Shown: positions 8,337-17,429 of the stretch, one piece after another
How positions within the stretch are numbered: position 1 is the first letter of the stretch
Layout of the letters: each line of letters starts with the position of its first letter
Assembly: GCA_963834015.1 (NCBI GenBank)
Contig: CAWIAG010000004.1
Location: 1,749,926-1,813,925 of the forward strand
Direction of reading: 5' to 3'
DNA length: 64,000 nucleotides
Source: an uncultured Ignavibacteriales bacterium
Lineage (GTDB): Bacteria > Bacteroidota > Ignavibacteria > Ignavibacteriales > Ignavibacteriaceae
Program-made: the position numbers and the translations under genes
The notes under the pieces: model-generated
What the model was told of the DNA's origin: nothing
Seen by the model: the letters and a program-made list of their open reading frames with translations, nothing else
Databases searched by the model: none

Positions 8337-8945
8337 ATGATTGTTAACAAATTATTAGAAAAATTATTTAGTGCGCCAAGTAATATTTCTGTAATCAGGG
8401 TGCTGAATGAGAGAGTTACGGGAATAACAGGCAGAGAGACTGCAAGGCTTACCAATCTTACACATCGTTCGGCTCTAAAAGCCCTTACTAATCTGGAAGA
8501 GCTTGGCGTTGTATCTCGCATAACAGGCGGTAGAGATCATATATTTACTCTTAACAGGCAGAAATATATTTCTAAAGAGATCATCTACCCGATTTTTGAA
8601 GCTGAAAAAAAATTTAATACAGCTATCAGATCTTCTTTAAAAAAACAATTATCAAAGTTAACTGATAGCATTATTGTATATGGTAGCGTTGCCCGTAAGG
8701 AAGAAACAATATCAAGTGATTATGATGTCTGCATTGTTTATAACGGGCATTTAAATGATATTGAAAATATTGTCTTAAAACTAAGGGACCGGCTTCATGA
8801 CCAATATTCAATTCAACTTGCTCCGATTTATATCAGAACCGCCGAATTTAAAAAACGTGCACGTAAAAAACTACCCCCGGTGAATGATATAGTTAATGAA
8901 GGAGTGGTAATAAGCGGTAAATCAATTCATAAGCTTCTGCAATGA
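8337..8945 (+). CDS. Winged-HTH plus minimal nucleotidyltransferase (MNT-like antitoxin candidate)
   Basis: N-terminal wHTH-like segment (ETARLTNLTHRSALKALTNLEELGVVSR). The NTase motif is YGSVARKEETISSDYDVCIVY (GS..R...DxD). Confidence 0.7.
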   Translation: MIVNKLLEKLFSAPSNISVIRVLNERVTGITGRETARLTNLTHRSALKALTNLEELGVVSRITGGRDHIFTLNRQKYISKEIIYPIFEAEKKFNTAIRSSLKKQLSKLTDSIIVYGSVARKEETISSDYDVCIVYNGHLNDIENIVLKLRDRLHDQYSIQLAPIYIRTAEFKKRARKKLPPVNDIVNEGVVISGKSIHKLLQ

Positions 8946-9343
8946 AACAACCCGTAAAAAAGATTGATGTAAATAAATATTTGGATTTTATAAAAGTTTC
9001 CGATGACTTTTCAAACGGAAGTGAATCTGCATATACATTCGAATACTATAATGCCGCCGGAGTTTTAGTAATTCATGCTGCAATTGCGCTTGCTGATGCT
9101 GTTACAATCAAACTATCCGGCAAAAAATGCAGCGGTGAAAGTCATTATGATATTATAGACTTATTAAGACTTGTCACTCCACCATCGCAGAATAAAAATA
9201 AATCATTAGATCAGTTCAAAAAATTGATTGATCATAAAAATAAAGTTTCATACTATGGTGATATCTATTTTAAGAAAGATGTAGATAAATTATTAAATCA
9301 TTTCAAAAGGTTTAAATCCTGGGCCGGTATGTTGCTAATGTAA
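8942..9343 (+). CDS. HEPN-like helical protein, partner of the nucleotidyltransferase
   Basis: Its ATGA start overlaps the upstream gene by 4 nt. 133 aa and helical. GESHYDIIDLL and LIDHKNKVSYYG resemble PF05168-type HEPN helices, but I find no canonical Rx4-6H motif. Confidence 0.5.
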   Translation: MKQPVKKIDVNKYLDFIKVSDDFSNGSESAYTFEYYNAAGVLVIHAAIALADAVTIKLSGKKCSGESHYDIIDLLRLVTPPSQNKNKSLDQFKKLIDHKNKVSYYGDIYFKKDVDKLLNHFKRFKSWAGMLLM

Positions 9344-9443
9344 AATACTATCTTTAATTGCATTAAGTTCTAAAAGAGATATTGACTTGATTTTACTATA
9401 ATTTAAACCGGCAGGTTTGTAAGAAAGGCATGAGCTTATTTTA

Positions 9444-9511
9444 AGCGTAAAGACATCCTGTTTGTCCCGCTTGTCCCGCCAAGGCGGTGGTCCGATTCCT
9501 TATCGGGAGGG
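9444..9511 (-). repeat. Third copy of module Y (cgtaaagaca...ggtgg..ccg...cttatcgggaggg)
   Basis: By-eye alignment to 6451-6515 and to the reverse complement of 2776-2833. Confidence 0.65.
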
Positions 9512-9598
9512 TTAGGCGAATCACGAATTTTTTTCCCCTCTCTTTATTAGGAGAGAGGGTGATTTTGTATCGTCATGAAACAATAAATGTGTGAATGA

Positions 9599-10267
9599 TT
9601 AATTCAAAAGCTCCATGGGAAATGGTTTGCCATGTCCAGGGTACACCATATTTATTTTTAGCTCGTGAAGTTTTTCTAAACTTTTTGTCAGTTCATCATG
9701 ATCCTGAATTATATTTGCCGATTCCGGTTTTTTGTTATTAACAAGTGTATCTCCTGAAAACAAATCGCCCGCGCCGGTTAATATGCCGATTGAGCCTTTT
9801 GTGTGTCCGGGTAAATGTATAACTTTTGCATTGAACCCATATTCCTGCAGGCTCTGGCCGTCATGCAGATAGATATCCGGTGTAAACTGATCCGTATTTA
9901 TTTTTTTCTTCTTTAATTTTCTTAAAAAAATAATAATTGCAAACATGATTTTTCTTGAAAGGTGTTTTACTTTTCTTTTTCCGGGAGAGCCTGATTGTAT
10001 GATTGAATAATCATCTTTGTGCATTGCTATAACGGCATTATATTTTTCCTTAAGTTTTTTACAATTGCCGGAATGATCCCTGTCCCCGTGTGTTAAAATT
10101 ACCAGTTTTAATTTGCCGGGAAGGCAGCCGTTGGAAATTAATTCTTTTTCCAATTTTCCCCATTGCATGGGTAATCCGGTATCTATTAAAATAAAGCCCG
10201 TGCCCAGCTTAAAAAGATAAGCGTTTACAAAGGAGAGTGGAATGGTTTTTATATTTTCGTCAATCAT
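9599..10267 (-). CDS. MBL-fold metallo-hydrolase
   Basis: ILIDTG, then LTHGDRDHSG (HxDxDH-like variant of the MBL HxHxDH motif), HLPGHTKGS, and PGHG at the C-terminus. Confidence 0.8.
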   Translation of the reverse strand: MIDENIKTIPLSFVNAYLFKLGTGFILIDTGLPMQWGKLEKELISNGCLPGKLKLVILTHGDRDHSGNCKKLKEKYNAVIAMHKDDYSIIQSGSPGKRKVKHLSRKIMFAIIIFLRKLKKKKINTDQFTPDIYLHDGQSLQEYGFNAKVIHLPGHTKGSIGILTGAGDLFSGDTLVNNKKPESANIIQDHDELTKSLEKLHELKINMVYPGHGKPFPMELLN

Positions 10268-10290
10268 ATTTTTATCCTCGGCTTTTATGA

Positions 10291-13062
10291 TTAATTATTT
10301 ATAACGAAGTTATATTTGCCGGATCCGATGTGCAATATAATTTTTCCGCCGGCTGACTGCACCATCTGTATTTCTTTTATCTGCTCTACAGGTTTGCCGC
10401 TTTCAAAGATATTGTCTTTTGAACCTGCCGGCATGAAAACATCCGCCGTGGTGTTGGGCGGAACCTGGATGTTAAGCTGTGTTGAATTATTATCAACTGT
10501 CCAGCCGGATGAAATCATCCCGTATATGGAGTGATATTCTGCTTTGGCATATTTTAACTGTTTTGTTATGTGCGGATCTATAATAATGTTTTTGTAACCG
10601 GGGCTGCCGCTGTCTATATCTATTCCGGCAACACAACTGTAAAGCCATTTGCCGACAGCTCCGTATGCGTAATGATTAAATGAATTCATGCCGTCACTCT
10701 GAAAAGACCCGTTTCTTTTTATTCCGTCCCAGCGTTCCCAAATTGTGGTGGCGCCTTTTGTTACGGGATAAAGCCATGAAGGATATTCTTTTCTGAAGAG
10801 AAGCATATATGCTAAATCCGTGTAACCGTTATCTGTAAGTACCCGGCTGATCCTTGAAGCGCCGAGGAACCCTGTTGTAAGATGCCCGAAATTATTAACA
10901 TCATCCGCCAGGCGTTTAGCCGCCGGTGCAATCATGTCCGCAGGAATAATATTGAAATCCAGAGCCAGTGCATAAGCGGTCTGCGTGTTGGATGCAAGTC
11001 TTCCGTTCTGAGTTATAAATTCTTTTTGAAAGGCTTCTTTAATATTTTTCATTAACGCGGTGAATTCTTGTGCATCCTGTTCATTGCCGAGTATTGAAGC
11101 AATTTTCTGCATAAGGTCTGCGGCATGATAAAAGTATGCAGTGCCTATCAGGTCCTTATCGGTTGTTGCTCCCGGATAGTCTGACCTGTCGGTTGCAAAC
11201 GCAAGCCAATCGCCGAAGCCGACATTTTTATTCCATAAGTAGGAATCGCCGGCAATTTTCTTTATGTAATTAAGCCAGCCTTTCATACAACTGTATTGGG
11301 TTTGAAGTATCCGGGTATCGCCGTAGTTTTGATAGACCGTCCATGGTACGATAATGGCAGCATCGGCCCAGCCTGCTGCACCTCCGCCGTCATTGCCCAG
11401 GATATTTGGAATTACGTGCGGTATCCTGCCGTCTTCAAGCTGATCCGCAGTAAAGTCTTTCATCCACTTGGTGTAGAAAGATGCGGCATCCATATTAAAA
11501 CATGCGGTTGGTGAGAAGACTTCTGCGTCTCCCGTCCATCCTAATCTTTCATCTCGCTGGGGGCAGTCGGTTGGCACATCTACAAAGTTGCCTCTTAATC
11601 CCCACTGGATATTTTTTTGAAGCCGGTTAATTAATGAATCGGAGCACTCAAAATTGCCGGATGGGGTCATATCCGAATGAATCACCATACCGGTTATATC
11701 ATTTAGAGAAATATCGCCGGGATAATTTGTTACAGCCACGTACCTGAAACCCTGGAATGTAAAATGCGGTTGAAATACTTCTGCACCGCTGCCTTTAAAA
11801 GTATATTCAACATTTTGTTTTGCTTTGCGGAGATTTGCCGTATAAATGTTTCCTTCTTTATTCAGTACCTCTGCATGCCGCAGGGTTATTTTATCGCCGG
11901 CATTGCCTTTTAATTTAAATTGAATCCAGCCTACCATATTTTGCCCCATGTCGAAAACCAAATCGCCGTTGGGTGTCTTAAATTCTTTAGCGGGCTTTAT
12001 TGTTTGTGTTATTCTAACGGCAGGCCCTTCGGTTGCTGTAAGAATATCTTTATTGTAATCTTTAACAGTTGTGCCGCTCCAGCCGCTGTCGTCATAGCCA
12101 GGCTTATCCCAGCCGTCTTTTTCCAGCCGTGCATCATAAGTTTCACCGTCATAAATTTCCGACATTAATATCGGGCCGGTGGATGATTTCCATTCCGGGC
12201 CGGATTTAATTATTTCCGATGTCCCGTCCGTATAAGTGATATTGATTTGAAGAAGGAGGCCGGTTTTATCTCCAAAATTATTTGCCTTATAATCCCATGT
12301 TAAAGGTCCTTTGTACCAGCCGTCGCCGAGGATTACGCCGAATGCGTTTTTACCTGACTGGATATTCCGCGTTACATCGTAAACCTGGTATTGAAGGCGT
12401 TTGTTATAGCTGGTCCAGCCGGGAGTGAAAAACCTGTTGCCGATTTTTTCACCGTTGATATGAAACTCATAAAGGCCATGGCATGTTACATAGGCTCTTG
12501 CAGATTTAACGGATTTATGGATTTCAATTTCATCCCTGAGCATAGGGCAGGGGCTGTAATTATTATCGTTTAGTTTCAACTGAGGCTCAATCCATTCAGC
12601 CTGCCAGTCAGATGATTGTAGCAGACCCATTTCCCAGAATGAAACTTCGCTCCATCCGGATTCGTCACCTTCGTTATCCAGGATTTTAACCTGCCAGAAT
12701 ACACGCTGCGCGGATTGCAAAGCGGCGCCGTTATATACAATCTGGTTGGACTGGCCGGAAATAATTTTACCGCTGTCCCATAAAAGATTTTTACCGCTTA
12801 ATAAATCTTTTTCAGACAGTGATGCGCGTACCATGTAAGCGCTCTGCATAATGTTCCTTTTAGAGGAAACAATTTCCCAGCTAAGCCGGGGCTGTTTATC
12901 GCCGATGCCGACGGGATTGAAGATGTAATCCGTCCTGAGATCGGTCACTTTTAATAAGTCAGATGCCATAACAGGATGAAAAAATAGTATAATTTGTAAT
13001 AAAACAAATAATAAAAAGCTGCGGCAGGTATTCCGCGGGAGTAGTCCTGTCATCTGTATCAT
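10291..13062 (-). CDS. Alpha-L-rhamnosidase, glycoside hydrolase family 78, secreted
   Basis: LKVTDLRTDYIFNPVGIGDKQPRLSWEI...QSAYMVRAS is the classic Bac_rhamnosid_N start, with DCPQRDERLGWTGDA in the catalytic domain. I moved the start to ATG 13062 (MIQMTGLL..., signal peptide). The track ORF extends to 13161. Confidence 0.9.
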   Translation of the reverse strand: MIQMTGLLPRNTCRSFLLFVLLQIILFFHPVMASDLLKVTDLRTDYIFNPVGIGDKQPRLSWEIVSSKRNIMQSAYMVRASLSEKDLLSGKNLLWDSGKIISGQSNQIVYNGAALQSAQRVFWQVKILDNEGDESGWSEVSFWEMGLLQSSDWQAEWIEPQLKLNDNNYSPCPMLRDEIEIHKSVKSARAYVTCHGLYEFHINGEKIGNRFFTPGWTSYNKRLQYQVYDVTRNIQSGKNAFGVILGDGWYKGPLTWDYKANNFGDKTGLLLQINITYTDGTSEIIKSGPEWKSSTGPILMSEIYDGETYDARLEKDGWDKPGYDDSGWSGTTVKDYNKDILTATEGPAVRITQTIKPAKEFKTPNGDLVFDMGQNMVGWIQFKLKGNAGDKITLRHAEVLNKEGNIYTANLRKAKQNVEYTFKGSGAEVFQPHFTFQGFRYVAVTNYPGDISLNDITGMVIHSDMTPSGNFECSDSLINRLQKNIQWGLRGNFVDVPTDCPQRDERLGWTGDAEVFSPTACFNMDAASFYTKWMKDFTADQLEDGRIPHVIPNILGNDGGGAAGWADAAIIVPWTVYQNYGDTRILQTQYSCMKGWLNYIKKIAGDSYLWNKNVGFGDWLAFATDRSDYPGATTDKDLIGTAYFYHAADLMQKIASILGNEQDAQEFTALMKNIKEAFQKEFITQNGRLASNTQTAYALALDFNIIPADMIAPAAKRLADDVNNFGHLTTGFLGASRISRVLTDNGYTDLAYMLLFRKEYPSWLYPVTKGATTIWERWDGIKRNGSFQSDGMNSFNHYAYGAVGKWLYSCVAGIDIDSGSPGYKNIIIDPHITKQLKYAKAEYHSIYGMISSGWTVDNNSTQLNIQVPPNTTADVFMPAGSKDNIFESGKPVEQIKEIQMVQSAGGKIILHIGSGKYNFVINN

Positions 13063-13452
13063 GTTGTTGTTCCATTCGTATTTTAAAAATAATTGTTTGC
13101 ATAGAAATACAGTTAAGGTAATATAATTTTTTACGTTCCAGATAATGTTGTAAAACTTCATATTAAAAATAAGCAGTAATTTATTAATTATATTGGCTTC
13201 AGTCGCATGGGCGGAACTATGAAATATCTCTCTGCCAATAATAAGGAATTTTTATTAGCTTTGTATGAGGCTTTGACCAGTTAAGGCAGGTAAAAAAAAA
13301 TAGATTACTATAATACGGTTAGCTTTATTGCATTTAAGCCTGATAAGAGTGAAACATTAAATTAGCGAAGCCTGCCCGTCTGCAGGCAGATGGTTTTCGA
13401 CTTACAAGATAATAATATTAATAATAATTGAATTTAATCCTGGAGATTAAAT

Positions 13453-15363
13453 ATGAATATTGCGCTTAAGAATATTCAGAATATAATTGAGAAAATTAAA
13501 GACGTTAATATTATTTTATACGGAGATTTTTGTCTTGATGCATACTGGGTGCTTGACCCGCGCGGTTCGGAAATTTCCGTTGAAACGGGACTTAAAGCTC
13601 TGGCTGCGGGCAATCAAAAGTATTCACTGGGCGGAGCTTCCAATGTGGCTGCCAATCTTGCAGCGCTAAAACCAAAGCAGGTTAAAATATTCGGAGTGGC
13701 AGGAAGCGATATCTTCGGCCAGGAAATGATAAGGCAGCTTAAGTTTACCGGAATTGATACCGGCGGACTGGTTATTCAGGAAGGAAATTTTGAGACCTAT
13801 ACATTTTCTAAATTAATTCTTGAAGGTAATGAACAGCCCAGGATTGATTTCGGGACGTATAATAAAAGAACTAAAGCTACAGATGATACTATTTTAATAA
13901 ATATCCGCAGCAATATAAAAAGCTCTGATGTAATTGTTATTAACCAGCAGGTTCCTGGCAGCATAACAAACCATGAATTTATTGACGGCTTAAACGAAAT
14001 TGTTAATGATTTTCCCGATAAGATATTCATAGTAGACTCCAGGCATTATTCTGCGGAATTTAAAAATGTATGCATGAAAACCAATGAAATAGAAGCAGCC
14101 ATACTTAACGGCATAAATGCAGAACCTGGAGATATCTTTAATGTAAATGATGTTAAGAAATTTGCGCAAGGTTTGTATGAAAAACATAACAGGCCGTCAT
14201 TCATAAGCCGGGGTAAATACGGTATTATTGCCTGCGATGCAGAAGGAATTCATGAAGTGCCTGGTTTACAATTCATAAAAAAGCTGGATACCGTAGGCGC
14301 GGGTGATACGGCATTAAGTGCTATATCATGTGCGCTTGCTGCAAAAATAAACACGTACGGCGCTATAGAATTTGCAAATTTTGCCGCAGGAGTAACAGTG
14401 CAAAAATTATTTCAAACAGGTACGGCAAGCCCTGAAGAAATATTATCGCTTAGTTCCGATCCTAATTATATATATCAGCCGGAACTGGCTGCGGATATCA
14501 GGTCGGCAAAATATTGGAAAAATTCTGAGATTGAATTATGCGGCAGCAGCCCGGATTTTTTTGAGAAGGGTAAAATTAAACATGCTGTTTTCGACCATGA
14601 CGGTACAATAAGTGTACTGCGTGAAGGATGGGAGCATGTTATGGGGCCAATGATGATAAAAGCTATTCTGGGTGAAAAATATAATAATGCGGATGAATAT
14701 TTGTATAACAAGGTTGTAAACCGGGTGAGGGATTATATTGATAAATCAACCGGGATACAAACAGTGCAGCAAATGGAGGGATTAATTGAACTGATCCGGG
14801 AATTTAATATAGTCCCGAAAGATAAAATCCTGGATAAATTCGGCTATAAAGAAATTTTTAACTATGCATTAATGGAAATGGTGAACAGGCGTGTAGATAA
14901 ATTAAATATGAAAGAACTGGACATCATGGATTTTGCAGTTAAAGGGGCAATTGAATTTTTAAATTACCTGTCGGCAAAAGGAATAAAGCTTTACCTGGCA
15001 AGCGGTACCGATAATGATGATGTAATCAGGGAAGCTAAAGCAATGGGTTATGCCCATTTATTTAACGGCGGAATATACGGAGCTATAGGAGATATAAGTA
15101 GGTATTCGAAAAAAATGGTAATGGAAAAAATAATTAAAGATAATAACCTTCAGGGAACCGAGCTTGTAACTTTTGGAGACGGCCCTGTAGAAATGCGTGA
15201 ATGCAGAAAAGTCGGCGGTATTGCAGTTGGTATAGCAAGCGATGAAATCAGGAGGTATGGTCTAAATGCAGAGAAACGCACCAGGTTAATTAAAGCCGGG
15301 GCCCAGATATTAATCCCGGATTATTCGCAAAGGAAGTATTTACAGGAAATATTATTTGATTGA
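13453..15363 (+). CDS. Fusion protein: RfaE/HldE-domain-I-like PfkB sugar kinase (N-terminal) plus capped HAD-superfamily hydrolase (C-terminal)
   Basis: Kinase half: ILYGDFCLDAYW...GGASNVAANLAAL and DTVGAGDTALSA. HAD half: motif I FDHDGTIS, motif II LYLASGTD, motif IV TFGDGPVE, with about 100 aa between motifs I and II (cap). Confidence 0.7.
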   Translation: MNIALKNIQNIIEKIKDVNIILYGDFCLDAYWVLDPRGSEISVETGLKALAAGNQKYSLGGASNVAANLAALKPKQVKIFGVAGSDIFGQEMIRQLKFTGIDTGGLVIQEGNFETYTFSKLILEGNEQPRIDFGTYNKRTKATDDTILINIRSNIKSSDVIVINQQVPGSITNHEFIDGLNEIVNDFPDKIFIVDSRHYSAEFKNVCMKTNEIEAAILNGINAEPGDIFNVNDVKKFAQGLYEKHNRPSFISRGKYGIIACDAEGIHEVPGLQFIKKLDTVGAGDTALSAISCALAAKINTYGAIEFANFAAGVTVQKLFQTGTASPEEILSLSSDPNYIYQPELAADIRSAKYWKNSEIELCGSSPDFFEKGKIKHAVFDHDGTISVLREGWEHVMGPMMIKAILGEKYNNADEYLYNKVVNRVRDYIDKSTGIQTVQQMEGLIELIREFNIVPKDKILDKFGYKEIFNYALMEMVNRRVDKLNMKELDIMDFAVKGAIEFLNYLSAKGIKLYLASGTDNDDVIREAKAMGYAHLFNGGIYGAIGDISRYSKKMVMEKIIKDNNLQGTELVTFGDGPVEMRECRKVGGIAVGIASDEIRRYGLNAEKRTRLIKAGAQILIPDYSQRKYLQEILFD

Positions 15364-15830
15364 AAATATCAGGATTTTATGTAATATAAACAATTGCGCA
15401 GGAATTATTATATAAGCCGCAATAAATTTTGTTATTCAATTTCGGCAGCTATGCGTATCTGTCTTTTATTCAAAGTATATTACTTTTAATCCTGTTTACG
15501 GAAGGTAAACTGATCCTCCGGAGGCGGACAAGTGAAAGAGTTAAGGGCAAATTTATTAGTATCATTAACAACGCGATTAATCGTGGAGTTAATGATGAAG
15601 CACCTTATAGTCTTCAACCGTTTTAAGGGTTTACGGTACACTTATAAGAAGTAAGGCAAAACAAATTATTGAATATTTGTGAATGAATTTTAACACAAAT
15701 TCTAAAAGTAGAGCTACTAAAACCATGACTGAAGAGTCAAACATTTAAAGCGCCGGGCAGATTGTAGATAAATATGAAATTTAAAATGTTTTATTTGTTA
15801 TATTCAGGAAAATATTTCTTTTATTAAATA

Positions 15831-17243
15831 ATGGATAACCAAATGGATACAAGACGAGAATTTATTAAAAAAATCGGGTTGAGCACTGCGGCTATAGCAG
15901 TAGGCACATCTTTATTAGACGGCCAGCAAGCTAAGATAAATCCTAAGACAAAGCCTGTTGTAACGGACGCTATGCATTACAACCGTATTATCGGTGCGAA
16001 TGACCGCGTTCATGTTGGTGTTGTAGGTTTTTCACATCGTTTTGAAGACACTCTTAGTCTGGCATTCAAAGCAAATGCTAAAGATATGAATATGGAATTT
16101 ACCGCTGTCTCCGATATATGGAACCAAAGAAGAGATGCCGGTATTTATTATCTGAACGGATTAACGGGAAATAAAATTACCGGGTACAGAAACAATGAAG
16201 AATTATATGAGAAATCAAAGGTTGATGCTGTTATTATCAGTACGGCTGATTTTCAGCATGCTTATCATGCCACGGAAGCCGTAAGGGCAGGGCGCGATGC
16301 TTATGTAGAAAAACCTTTAGCGGAATCGATGGCGGATAATAAAATGGTGCTTAATGCGGTAAAGGAGACAAAGAAAATAGTTCAGATAGGTTCCCAGAGG
16401 CGGAGCGCAAAAAATTATCAGACTGCGGCGGAATATATTAAGTCAGGCAAATTCGGCTTTATAAAGTTTGTTGAAATGACATGGAATGTAAACCAGCCGG
16501 ACCGCTGGCGTTTACCAGATGTAGTGGCTAAGTTAAAAGAGAGCGATACAGACTGGCAAAGATTTTTAGTTAACAGGGAAAGAATACCGTTTAATCCCCG
16601 TATTTATTGCGAGTACCGTTTATTCTGGCCTTATTCTTCGGGTATACCGGGGCAATGGATGTGCCATCAGATAGATACGGTGCATTGGTTTACAGGATTT
16701 AAACATCCTTTGAGTGTTGTTGCGGGCGGAGGAATTTATATGTGGAACGACGGCAGGAAAAACGCCGATACATTAACGGCTATATTGGAGTACGGCCCTG
16801 CCAATGATAAAGACACAACAAAGAGATTTCAGGTTAATTATACTTCAAGGTTTTCAAATTCGGCGGGTGATGTAAAGGAAATATATTACTCCAATGGTGG
16901 AGAGTTAAACCTTGATACAAACAAAGTGACTCCACATGGCGGTTTAACTAAAGAGCATGCTGAAAAATACCCGCAGTTCGGGCTTCATGAAAACCTTCTG
17001 CCTGAATTTGAACTTGCGGATAATAAGATAAAAAGCGTTACGGATGCAAATGCAGGAGCAGACCTGATGACGATTGCACACATGAGGAACTGGATGGAAT
17101 GTATTAGAAGCCGTCAACAACCGCATGCGCCAATTGAAGCAGGGTATAATCATTCAGTTGCAAGCATGATGGTAACAGAATCGTTACACAGAGGCAGAAA
17201 AGTTATTTTTGACGAAGGTAAACAGGAAATTGTAAATGCATGA
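15831..17243 (+). CDS. TAT-exported Gfo/Idh/MocA family oxidoreductase
   Basis: Twin-arginine signal TRREFIKKIGLSTAAIAVG, Rossmann motif VGVVGFSHRF, and the EKPL motif (YVEKPLA). Confidence 0.85.
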   Translation: MDNQMDTRREFIKKIGLSTAAIAVGTSLLDGQQAKINPKTKPVVTDAMHYNRIIGANDRVHVGVVGFSHRFEDTLSLAFKANAKDMNMEFTAVSDIWNQRRDAGIYYLNGLTGNKITGYRNNEELYEKSKVDAVIISTADFQHAYHATEAVRAGRDAYVEKPLAESMADNKMVLNAVKETKKIVQIGSQRRSAKNYQTAAEYIKSGKFGFIKFVEMTWNVNQPDRWRLPDVVAKLKESDTDWQRFLVNRERIPFNPRIYCEYRLFWPYSSGIPGQWMCHQIDTVHWFTGFKHPLSVVAGGGIYMWNDGRKNADTLTAILEYGPANDKDTTKRFQVNYTSRFSNSAGDVKEIYYSNGGELNLDTNKVTPHGGLTKEHAEKYPQFGLHENLLPEFELADNKIKSVTDANAGADLMTIAHMRNWMECIRSRQQPHAPIEAGYNHSVASMMVTESLHRGRKVIFDEGKQEIVNA

Positions 17244-17429
17244 GTTCTTACGAGACGGGATCGCATAGGGATAAACTATGCCCTGTCTTGTAAAAGGAAT
17301 GTATCTGATAGTATGCTTAAAGTTAATTATAATTCTGTTTTGCTATTGGAAGCGGTTTTAATGCAGTATTCCCGTCTTGTAATAAAGAAGTGTTTTTATT
17401 TATTTAATATTAATTACTAAATAATAATT

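Follow-up and report, generated by a model that had tools for sequence, protein, structure and literature searches.

The five steps of ADP-heptose biosynthesis are textbook knowledge; the pathway is also an antibiotic target, and two of its products, heptose bisphosphate and ADP-heptose, are innate-immune agonists. HldE of E. coli joins steps 2 and 4 of this pathway (kinase and adenylyltransferase), and GmhB, the phosphatase of step 3, is a capless HAD protein of the histidinol-phosphatase-like group. Here we describe a gene whose product resembles E. coli HldE in that an N-terminal heptose kinase-like domain is joined to what is probably another enzyme of the pathway. Its C-terminal partner, however, is a C1-capped HAD domain rather than the adenylyltransferase of HldE, and the fusion would join the consecutive steps 2 and 3 (kinase, phosphatase) rather than 2 and 4. 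A literature search for a kinase-HAD fusion protein found no paper, and one on the fusion, a GmhB substitute and GSU2086 yielded a transposon table from Geobacter as its sole find.

The gene occupies positions 13453-15363 (+) of the window, that is, of the whole 64,000-nt stretch of contig CAWIAG010000004.1 (GCA_963834015.1) that we analysed. It is a complete open reading frame with an ATG start, 636 codons and a stop, and its ribosome-binding site is kept (GGAG, 8 nt 5' of the ATG); a promoter scan of the upstream region stayed at chance level (17 sites vs 13.2 +/- 4.2 expected). The first-pass annotation had proposed that an HldE-domain-I-like kinase and a capped HAD phosphatase are fused in one protein, to be checked by HMM domain calls and by a search for the same fusion and its neighbours in other genomes. 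Domain matches, relatives and the continuous frame all bear the fusion out. Every motif quoted in that annotation can be read in the translation: GDFCLDAYW (residues 24-32), GGASNVAANLA (60-70), GAGDT (282-286), DHDGT (381-385), SGT (517-519) and GDG (575-577). HMM calls place a PfkB domain at residues 52-318 (PF00294, E 1e-22, 81.3 bits vs a gathering cutoff of 25.8) and a Hydrolase/HAD domain at residues 375-586 (PF00702, E 1.3e-9, 39.1 bits vs a cutoff of 26.4). Full-length relatives, 55-97% identical, were found in at least 475 species genomes of Ignavibacteria, Calditrichota, KSB1 and, mainly, Planctomycetota, so the fusion is not an assembly artefact; the closest, P0001, is 97% identical to the fusion protein, and complete genomes among the carriers include CP070747.1, CP070806.1 and OY970194.1.

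A sequencing frameshift joining two separate genes had been envisaged at nt 14460-14580 (residues ~336-376) as the outcome that would undo the fusion. We found neither a frameshift nor a stop in this region, and the reading frame is unbroken in 83 of 83 loci with the fusion gene (the window plus loci from public assemblies, some of them near-duplicates). Moreover, the junction is among the best conserved stretches of the protein: I340, P343, E344, L345, A346, R350, A352, E359, E361 and C363 are the same in all 22 aligned sequences. The continuous frame and the conserved linker together rule out two separate genes. Against L001, the locus of a 97%-identical relative, dN/dS is 0.11 in the fusion gene and the same in both halves; the gene has stayed intact, and purifying selection acts on it.

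By sequence and modelled fold, the kinase half (residues 1-335; 13453-14457, +) is closest to HldA and domain I of HldE. It has the features of PfkB/ribokinase-like enzymes, as G60-G61, N211 and E214 (NxxE) and G282-A-G-D285 do not vary among 22 sequences; the GAGD motif (282-285) holds the catalytic Asp285, and GDFCLDAYW is the lid motif. The best NCBIfam match of the protein is rfaE_dom_I (TIGR02198, residues 12-330). Its score of 120.3 bits lies far below the equivalog cutoff of 345, and relatives of the fusion reach 124-129 bits; given this shortfall, the substrate of the kinase could differ from that of HldE. In a Foldseek search with the model, ranks 1-7 were all B. cenocepacia HldA (E 3e-20 to 7e-19, target-normalised TM 0.82-0.85), which makes HldA the nearest solved structure. 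Pseudouridine kinase and ribokinase follow at ~1e-15, about five orders of magnitude behind; pLDDT of the kinase domain is mostly 80-95 except in the lid. HldA (PDB 4E84) and the fusion kinase share the fold, the GDxxLDxYW lid motif, GG, NxxE and GAGD, and GmhA-like genes adjoin the fusion. The two are nevertheless only ~21-22% identical, and the segment SPEAPVPV of HldA reads SEISVETGL in the fusion kinase.

The two halves are connected by a conserved linker followed by the N-terminal hairpin of the HAD module (residues 336-374, DPNYIYQPELAADIRSAKYW..EIELC; 14458-14574, +), with invariant residues in alignment A1 (22 sequences). Stand-alone HAD homologues have the second half of this stretch (Y..IE..) at their N-terminus too. 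A full-length AlphaFold model built from a 22-sequence alignment has a mean pLDDT of 73.7 and a pTM of 0.54, and pLDDT falls below 50 at linker residues 337-352. The HAD phosphotransferase domain itself spans residues 375-636 (14575-15363, +) and carries motifs I (F-D381-H-D383-G-T385), II (S517-G-T519), III (K553/K554) and IV (G-D576-G-P-V-E580). Residues D381, D383, T385, S517, K553 and D576/E580 are invariant in A1 and, except for a nearly invariant T385, also in A5, a divergent set of fused and stand-alone HAD forms. The catalytic Asp, whose lack in the C-terminal half would have spoken against the proposed fusion enzyme, is thus present as the invariant D381.

Between motifs I and II lies a C1 cap insert of ~125 amino acids (residues 386-510; 14608-14982, +), which forms five to six helices in the models and has residues R390, W393, G434, Q436, Q440, Y465, K466 and R480 invariant family-wide (A5). 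This helical insert and a HAD_2 score above cutoff (PF13419, 29.6 bits vs 23.8) assign the domain to HAD subfamily IA, and comparison of the modelled fold likewise points to HAD-IA phosphatases; sequence and profile searches of the HAD half against the PDB gave only weak, core-only matches of the KdsC/YrbI type (E 1e-3 and worse). HAD-IA C1-capped phosphatases (COG0546 phosphoglycolate-phosphatase-like proteins, the 2-deoxyglucose-6-P phosphatase YniC, AlnB, CbbY) are 10-20% identical to it; its cap is roughly double the usual size, with a set of invariant residues of its own. With GmhB it shares the HAD superfamily and the DxDxT nucleophile motif, and its position in ADP-heptose clusters is that of the GmhB step. 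In contrast to the capless GmhB, however, it has the ~125-residue C1 cap and HAD-IA phosphatases as its nearest structures, and GmhB and histidinol-phosphatase-like models are not among the NCBIfam matches of the protein at E up to 1. Judged by sequence, the HAD half is not GmhB; it is an analogue of GmhB and not a member of that family. The domain might instead be a beta-phosphomutase, like beta-phosphoglucomutase, that interconverts a sugar 1-phosphate and the distal phosphate via the bisphosphate made by the kinase; it has no match to beta-PGM family models, and we consider this the least probable of the alternatives.

The gene order in relatives suggests which pathway the fusion serves. 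In locus L087, co-directional genes encode HldC-like (TIGR02199, 143.6 bits), HldD-like (TIGR02197, 261.5 bits), AGE-family, GSU2086-family and GmhA-like (TIGR00441, 180.6 bits) proteins and the fusion. A fragment of the fusion gene is followed by HldC, HldD and GmhA in L091, and L094/L095 combine HldC, HldD, a stand-alone HAD of the same family (42% identical) and GmhA, with a GT9 heptosyltransferase three genes on and no canonical GmhB listed in these clusters. The 97%-identical relatives (L001-L003) have a gmhA-like gene (TIGR00441, 203.5 bits vs a cutoff of 209.45), a GSU2086-family gene and then the fusion. The HAD family also takes part in other fusions: among the best 150 cluster representatives we counted 91 kinase-HAD proteins and one each of HAD-GmhA (immediately preceded by a separate PfkB gene and one of the GSU2086 family), HldC-HAD (P0352) and kinase-HAD-GSU2086 (P0259). 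The adenylyltransferase, part of HldE in E. coli, is a separate gene in L087 and L091 and is fused to the HAD domain in P0352. One family member is fused to RibBA, so the HAD family is not exclusively linked to heptose. The conserved context and the alternative fusions point to the logic foreseen in the first-pass annotation, in which a sugar phosphate is phosphorylated and then dephosphorylated to a sugar 1-phosphate.

We propose, with a probability of roughly 0.65, that the product of the gene is a bifunctional enzyme acting in nucleotide-heptose biosynthesis. The kinase half would convert heptose-7-P to heptose-1,7-bisphosphate, and the C1-capped HAD half would remove the 7-phosphate on the same polypeptide to give heptose-1-P, by the usual aspartyl-phosphate mechanism with D381 as nucleophile and D383 as acid/base. 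The HAD domain would have taken the place of GmhB without being its orthologue, and would be joined to the enzyme that acts one step earlier. Its placement in clusters L087, L091 and L094 and its fusions to GmhA and HldC suggest that it replaces GmhB there as a putative 7-phosphatase. We infer the precise substrate and anomer, the regiochemistry of the phosphatase step and any channelling.

The first-pass annotation had suggested that the substrate may differ from heptose, given the capped HAD and a position divergent from a rhamnosidase in a glycan-utilisation island. The conserved partners of the fusion, namely a GmhA-like isomerase, HldC, HldD and a GT9 heptosyltransferase, speak against this. 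A GH78 rhamnosidase neighbours the fusion only in the window and in three loci of close relatives, two of which are near-duplicates of the first, and in the close relatives two heptose-module genes stand between rhamnosidase and fusion. In the window, ~2.0 kb corresponding to L001 7520-9531 are missing at a junction at 13185-13197, as seen by comparison with the 97%-identical relatives; in L001 this segment holds the gmhA-like gene (SIS_2) and the bulk of the GSU2086-family gene. What is left of the latter is a remnant of its last 28 codons plus stop (FSRMGGTMKYLSANNKEFLLALYEALTS*; 13198-13284, +), which matches L001 9532-9638 (88% identity, blastn) and residues 341-368 of the L001 protein (85.7%, tblastn). 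The direct divergent adjacency of rhamnosidase and fusion is therefore a product of the deletion, and we reject a functional tie between the two. Between the remnant and the fusion gene also sits a putative terminator, a GCCTGC-CCGTCT-GCAGGC hairpin followed by a T-rich tail (13370-13397, +), recognised by consensus match only.

The same kinase-then-phosphatase chemistry could still act on another manno-configured sugar phosphate (e.g. mannose 6-phosphate to beta-mannose 1-phosphate) and serve glycan catabolism or another product instead of LPS heptose. The kinase scores well under the HldE cutoff, and the dominant neighbour is an AGE-family isomerase/epimerase, which stands beside the fusion in place of GmhA in 44 of 53 loci (those with enough upstream DNA, neighbours being counted by tblastn) and has cellobiose 2-epimerase, N-acylglucosamine 2-epimerase and mannose isomerase as its best NCBIfam matches; HldC and HldD are near the fusion in only one of the 53. 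Homologues of the GSU2086-family partner, 74-75% identical, sit in sugar-transport and alpha-mannosidase loci without heptose genes (SSF transporters, GH38/GH92 mannosidases), and GH92, GH78 and glycoside-3-dehydrogenase-like genes lie near the fusion in the window. However, the adjacent pathway-specific genes are always heptose-specific (GmhA-like near equivalog scores, HldC, HldD, GT9), the HAD domain is fused to HldC and to GmhA, and the glycoside hydrolase neighbours are not conserved past close relatives, and we regard another sugar as unlikely.

Directly upstream of the fusion, no neighbour is as constant as the GSU2086-family gene (42 of the 53 loci). The Geobacter sulfurreducens gene GSU2086 is flanked by gmhA and hldE, and a transposon screen table lists all three genes as affecting electrode growth (PMC5585712). 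This constancy, the fusion to kinase-HAD in P0259 and the Geobacter operon, for which the table mentions no gmhB (PMC5585712), would fit a GSU2086-family protein that is the true GmhB replacement, with the HAD domain left to proofreading, side-product hydrolysis or regulation. We consider this improbable, since L094/L095 have the HAD, HldC, HldD, GmhA and GT9 but no GSU2086-family gene, and since the family resembles NAD/dinucleotide-binding folds and not a phosphatase, with weak local similarity (~65-80 residues) to the ArgZ C-terminal domain, TIGR00300 and deoxyhypusine synthase. More tentatively, the module of GmhA-like or AGE isomerase, GSU2086-family protein and fusion might make an undescribed heptose or other manno-sugar 1-phosphate derivative and not simply the precursor of ADP-L-glycero-D-manno-heptose. 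The GSU2086-family protein would then be a new dinucleotide-dependent sugar-phosphate epimerase/isomerase (NAD or nickel-pincer type), and the AGE-family protein a non-orthologous GmhA; we hold this to be possible but doubtful.

For the window's own genome, the deletion raises the question of whether the gene is a stranded leftover that lost its operon partners and its pathway role and is heading to decay. The 28-codon stump is more diverged (88% nt) than its flanks (95-96%), a search of the whole 64-kb window for GmhA, HldC, HldD and GSU2086-family genes found none, and the window is one of only three of the 53 loci without GmhA-like, AGE-family and GSU2086-family neighbours. Such a fate nevertheless seems rather unlikely to us: the frame and all catalytic residues are intact, the low dN/dS holds in both halves against a relative with the intact operon, and the ribosome-binding site is kept. 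The partners of the fusion may be encoded at other sites of the genome, as seems to be the case for gmhA in most Planctomycete loci; with its gmhA-like and GSU2086-family neighbours deleted, the enzyme, if still used, must rely on such genes.

Most likely, the fusion is a variant of the known ADP-heptose pathway that arose by non-orthologous displacement of GmhB plus gene fusion. If this is true, Planctomycetota, Ignavibacteria, Calditrichota and KSB1, all large environmental phyla, carry out steps 2 and 3 on one polypeptide, using a phosphatase unrelated to GmhB at family level; we would expect a fused kinase-phosphatase to hold the free bisphosphate intermediate low. Two further uncharacterised, tightly linked partners are indicated, the GSU2086 family and the AGE-like protein. 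With the proposed function, the labels now in use ('PfkB family carbohydrate kinase', 'HAD family hydrolase' and 'rfaE bifunctional protein kinase chain') would need correction, and the apparently missing gmhB genes in those phyla would be accounted for.

The first-pass annotation had described a single 636-aa ORF, and this was confirmed: the fusion ORF runs uninterrupted from 13453 to 15363 (+), starts with an ATG that follows a GGAG by 8 nt, and carries each quoted kinase and HAD motif at the place reported. Pfam searches recovered both halves above their gathering scores, PfkB at residues 52-318 (E 1e-22) and the HAD 'Hydrolase' domain at residues 375-586 (E 1.3e-9) plus HAD_2. A protein collection search yielded full-length relatives (622-667 aa, 59-97% identity) in at least 120 clusters, all with both Pfam domains, and a genome scan found a relative in at least 475 species-representative genomes. 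These belong to Ignavibacteriaceae (the closest), other Bacteroidota, Calditrichaceae, KSB1 and, above all, Planctomycetota (Phycisphaerae, Sedimentisphaerales and Pirellulales); since most loci are from metagenome-assembled genomes, the taxon labels, including Actinomycetota for locus L025, need care. Public annotations give the relatives generic names only. The frame is continuous in 83/83 loci with the fusion gene (the window and loci taken from public assemblies, including a few near-duplicates), and the kinase-HAD junction is among the most conserved regions of the protein. Because the junction is so strongly conserved, a frameshift or stop concealing two genes is excluded. Elsewhere the modules are separate or differently joined, the pattern expected of a genuine evolutionary fusion. 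The fusion is real.

The kinase half found its top NCBIfam model in rfaE_dom_I (TIGR02198, the HldE kinase domain; residues 12-330), with a score of only 120 bits where the curated cutoff is 345; by that score it does not qualify as an HldE equivalog. Its PfkB catalytic set is invariant across 22 diverse sequences (GG 60-61, NxxE 211-214 and GAGD 282-285 with Asp285), and the N-terminus has an HldA-type lid motif, lyGDFCLDAYW, compared with vvGDVMLDRYW in Burkholderia cenocepacia HldA. We compared an AlphaFold model of the full-length protein (mean pLDDT 73.7, kinase core mostly 80-95) with the PDB. HldA took ranks 1-7 (E about 3e-20, TM 0.82-0.85 normalised to the target), followed by pseudouridine kinase, ribokinase and sulfofructose kinase at about 1e-15. 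The kinase domain is thus modelled as nearest to heptose-7-phosphate kinase, and is predicted to work like it.

The concern that the HAD half might lack its catalytic Asp proved unfounded, as HAD motifs I (F-D381-H-D383-G-T385), II (S517-G-T), III (K553/K554) and IV (G-D576-G-P-V-E580) are all invariant. No GmhB or histidinol-phosphatase-like NCBIfam model matched the fusion protein at E up to 1, and a PDB-sequence profile search with the HAD half gave marginal matches confined to the core. On these grounds we place it outside the GmhB family, as a predicted HAD-IA-type phosphotransferase.

We then considered the genes around the fusion. In L001-L003, the loci of 97%-identical relatives, and in other Ignavibacteria/Bacteroidota loci, a SIS_2 protein and a GSU2086-family protein are encoded directly 5' of it. 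The former reached 203.5 bits on the GmhA equivalog model (cutoff 209.45), and the latter (368 aa; L001 8512-9618) scored 337 bits on the NCBIfam 'GSU2086 family' model. In Geobacter sulfurreducens, gmhA (GSU2087) and hldE (GSU2085) flank GSU2086, and a transposon screen lists all three among the genes that affect growth on electrodes (PMC5585712).

More complete ADP-heptose clusters were found in other loci. In L087, whose fusion is 55% identical, genes for HldC-like, HldD-like, AGE-family, GSU2086-family and GmhA-like proteins and the fusion are co-directional. In L091, a contig-edge fragment of the fusion, identified by its linker motif, is followed by HldC, HldD and GmhA. L094/L095 hold HldC, HldD, a stand-alone HAD of the fusion's HAD family (42% identical) and GmhA, with a GT9 heptosyltransferase three genes on; no second HAD is listed there. 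In these clusters all textbook pathway steps are represented but GmhB, and the capped HAD stands in its place.

Searching the HAD domain against 1.8 billion cluster representatives returned 1180 clusters at E < 1e-3. Among the best 150 of these we counted 91 kinase-HAD proteins, 52 stand-alone HADs, three HADs with an unassigned extension, and one each of HAD-GmhA (P0349, with a separate PfkB and a GSU2086-family gene just upstream), HldC-HAD (P0352), kinase-HAD-GSU2086 (P0259) and RibBA-HAD (P0389). The P0352 gene (6751-8034) lies on L096, an 8.4-kb phage-like contig with a terminase large subunit and a DNA methylase fragment, and adjoins RpiB, a transketolase fragment and a DAO oxidoreductase; it looks like a virus-carried auxiliary heptose-nucleotide module. 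In P0389 (L097 335-2362) a capped HAD of the family, 36-41% identical, is attached to the C-terminus of RibBA (DHBP synthase / GTP cyclohydrolase II), which suggests that this branch acts as a phosphatase in riboflavin synthesis. That the fusion's HAD is a mutase rather than a phosphatase is very improbable: it occupies the GmhB position in clusters, is joined to HldC, and matches no beta-PGM family model.

Close-relative neighbours, full ADP-heptose clusters and alternative fusions are three independent lines that converge on heptose. The phosphorylate-then-dephosphorylate logic of the first-pass annotation stands, from the heptose clusters and alternative fusions, as the best-supported mechanism, with a probability of about 0.65. 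The N-terminal domain would phosphorylate heptose O-1, the HAD domain would take off the 7-phosphate, and HldC would afterwards adenylylate the 1-phosphate; the domain identities and the genomic and fusion associations are observed, and the substrate, the regiochemistry and any channelling within the enzyme are inferred.

Neighbours were counted in 53 non-redundant loci with 3 kb or more of DNA 5' of the fusion. An AGE-family (N-acylglucosamine 2-epimerase/mannose isomerase-like) gene is near the fusion in 44/53 (for example L007 5669-6946 and L087 7072-8343), a GmhA-like gene in only 7/53, either or both in 49/53, and HldC with HldD in only 1/53. Most Planctomycete loci pair the fusion with the AGE-family gene and have no adjacent GmhA; the AGE-family protein's best matches, all weak, are cellobiose 2-epimerase, N-acylglucosamine 2-epimerase and mannose isomerase. 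GmhA and AGE-type mannose isomerases both carry out aldose-ketose interconversion towards manno-configured sugars, and by this shared chemistry the AGE-like protein may be a non-orthologous substitute for GmhA.

The most constant gene immediately 5' of the fusion (42/53) encodes the GSU2086-family protein (NF052581; 343-370 aa; also L007 6964-7995 and L087 8362-9417), which in P0259 is joined to the fusion as residues 659-1017. It has no Pfam domain, falls into two subfamilies (about 33% mutual identity) and carries many invariant His/Asp/Glu residues. Only local stretches resemble known families: the dinucleotide-binding region of the ArgZ C-terminal domain, TIGR00300 (nickel-pincer-dependent ornithine cyclodeaminases) and deoxyhypusine synthase. 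A short LarC-like 'Ni_insertion' ORF (162-173 aa) lies directly 5' of the gmhA-like gene in three loci (L005/L006 5776-6264, and L011); with the TIGR00300 similarity, this raises the idea that a nickel-pincer cofactor may be linked to the module. Homologues 74-75% identical to the L001 protein (L088 8001-9119, L089 8001-9101) lie between two SSF transporter genes. Both loci also hold GH38/GH92 alpha-mannosidases and a DHDPS-like gene, and L089, but not L088, has an FGGY kinase; neither a kinase-HAD fusion nor any heptose gene is close by. The family's role is therefore broader than, or different from, heptose. These homologues and the neighbour counts leave some room for a module acting on another manno-sugar phosphate, which we consider unlikely given the convergence on heptose, and slightly more for one yielding an undescribed derivative.

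The first-pass annotation had suspected a non-heptose substrate, partly from the divergent GH78 rhamnosidase beside the fusion. This adjacency is the product of a deletion. Window 9001-13184 aligns with L001 3337-7519 (96.4% identity) and window 13415-17244 with L001 9963-13791 (94.7%); between them only window 13198-13301 matches, to L001 9532-9638 (88%). This short block comprises the 3' end of the GSU2086-family gene, 28 codons long (a stump at 13198-13284), and a few bases, and the stump is more diverged than the flanking DNA (88% against 95-96%). The deleted segment, about 2.0 kb that the 97%-identical relatives still have (L001 7520-9531), held the gmhA-like SIS_2 gene and the bulk of the GSU2086-family gene. 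A terminator-like hairpin (13370-13387) lies between stump and fusion gene, and promoter-like matches upstream of the latter are at chance level. A search of the whole 64-kb window for GmhA, HldC, HldD and full GSU2086-family genes found none. The window's fusion gene could, given these losses, be a stranded leftover; this is doubtful, as its ORF is intact and its dN/dS against L001 is 0.11 (kinase half 0.10, HAD half 0.12), indicating purifying selection for most of the divergence. Its continued use depends on genes outside the window.

Downstream, window 15831-17243 (+) encodes a GFO/IDH/MocA oxidoreductase with a twin-arginine-type N-terminus (MDNQMDTRREFIKKIG...), which groups with an L087 gene matching the glycoside 3-dehydrogenase BT_2158 family. 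Such a gene is 3' of the fusion in 10 loci, mostly non-Planctomycetota; since its product is probably periplasmic, a link to the heptose steps, which are cytoplasmic, is improbable. Just after this gene the synteny with the 97%-identical relatives stops, and the DNA beyond is variable: from 17245 the window has GH92, then a 413-aa ORF to which no Pfam family matched, then an MFS transporter, while L001 from 13792 has a hybrid two-component/AraC regulator of 1370 aa followed by an MFS transporter. On the other side, an NTP_transf_2 nucleotidyltransferase ORF and a 133-aa ORF that matched no Pfam family overlap by 4 nt (8337-9343, +); the pair is kept in L001-L003 and resembles an MNT/HEPN-type toxin-antitoxin.

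The ADP-heptose pathway and both superfamilies are already known. In the literature searched we found no description of a C1-capped HAD in the GmhB role, of its fusion to an HldA-like kinase, or of the constant GSU2086-family and AGE-like partners. The logic of displacement and fusion will not surprise a specialist; the pathway is medically relevant, and the fusion is widespread in environmental phyla. It offers a clean case of gene fusion together with a putative non-orthologous displacement of GmhB, as read from the loci.
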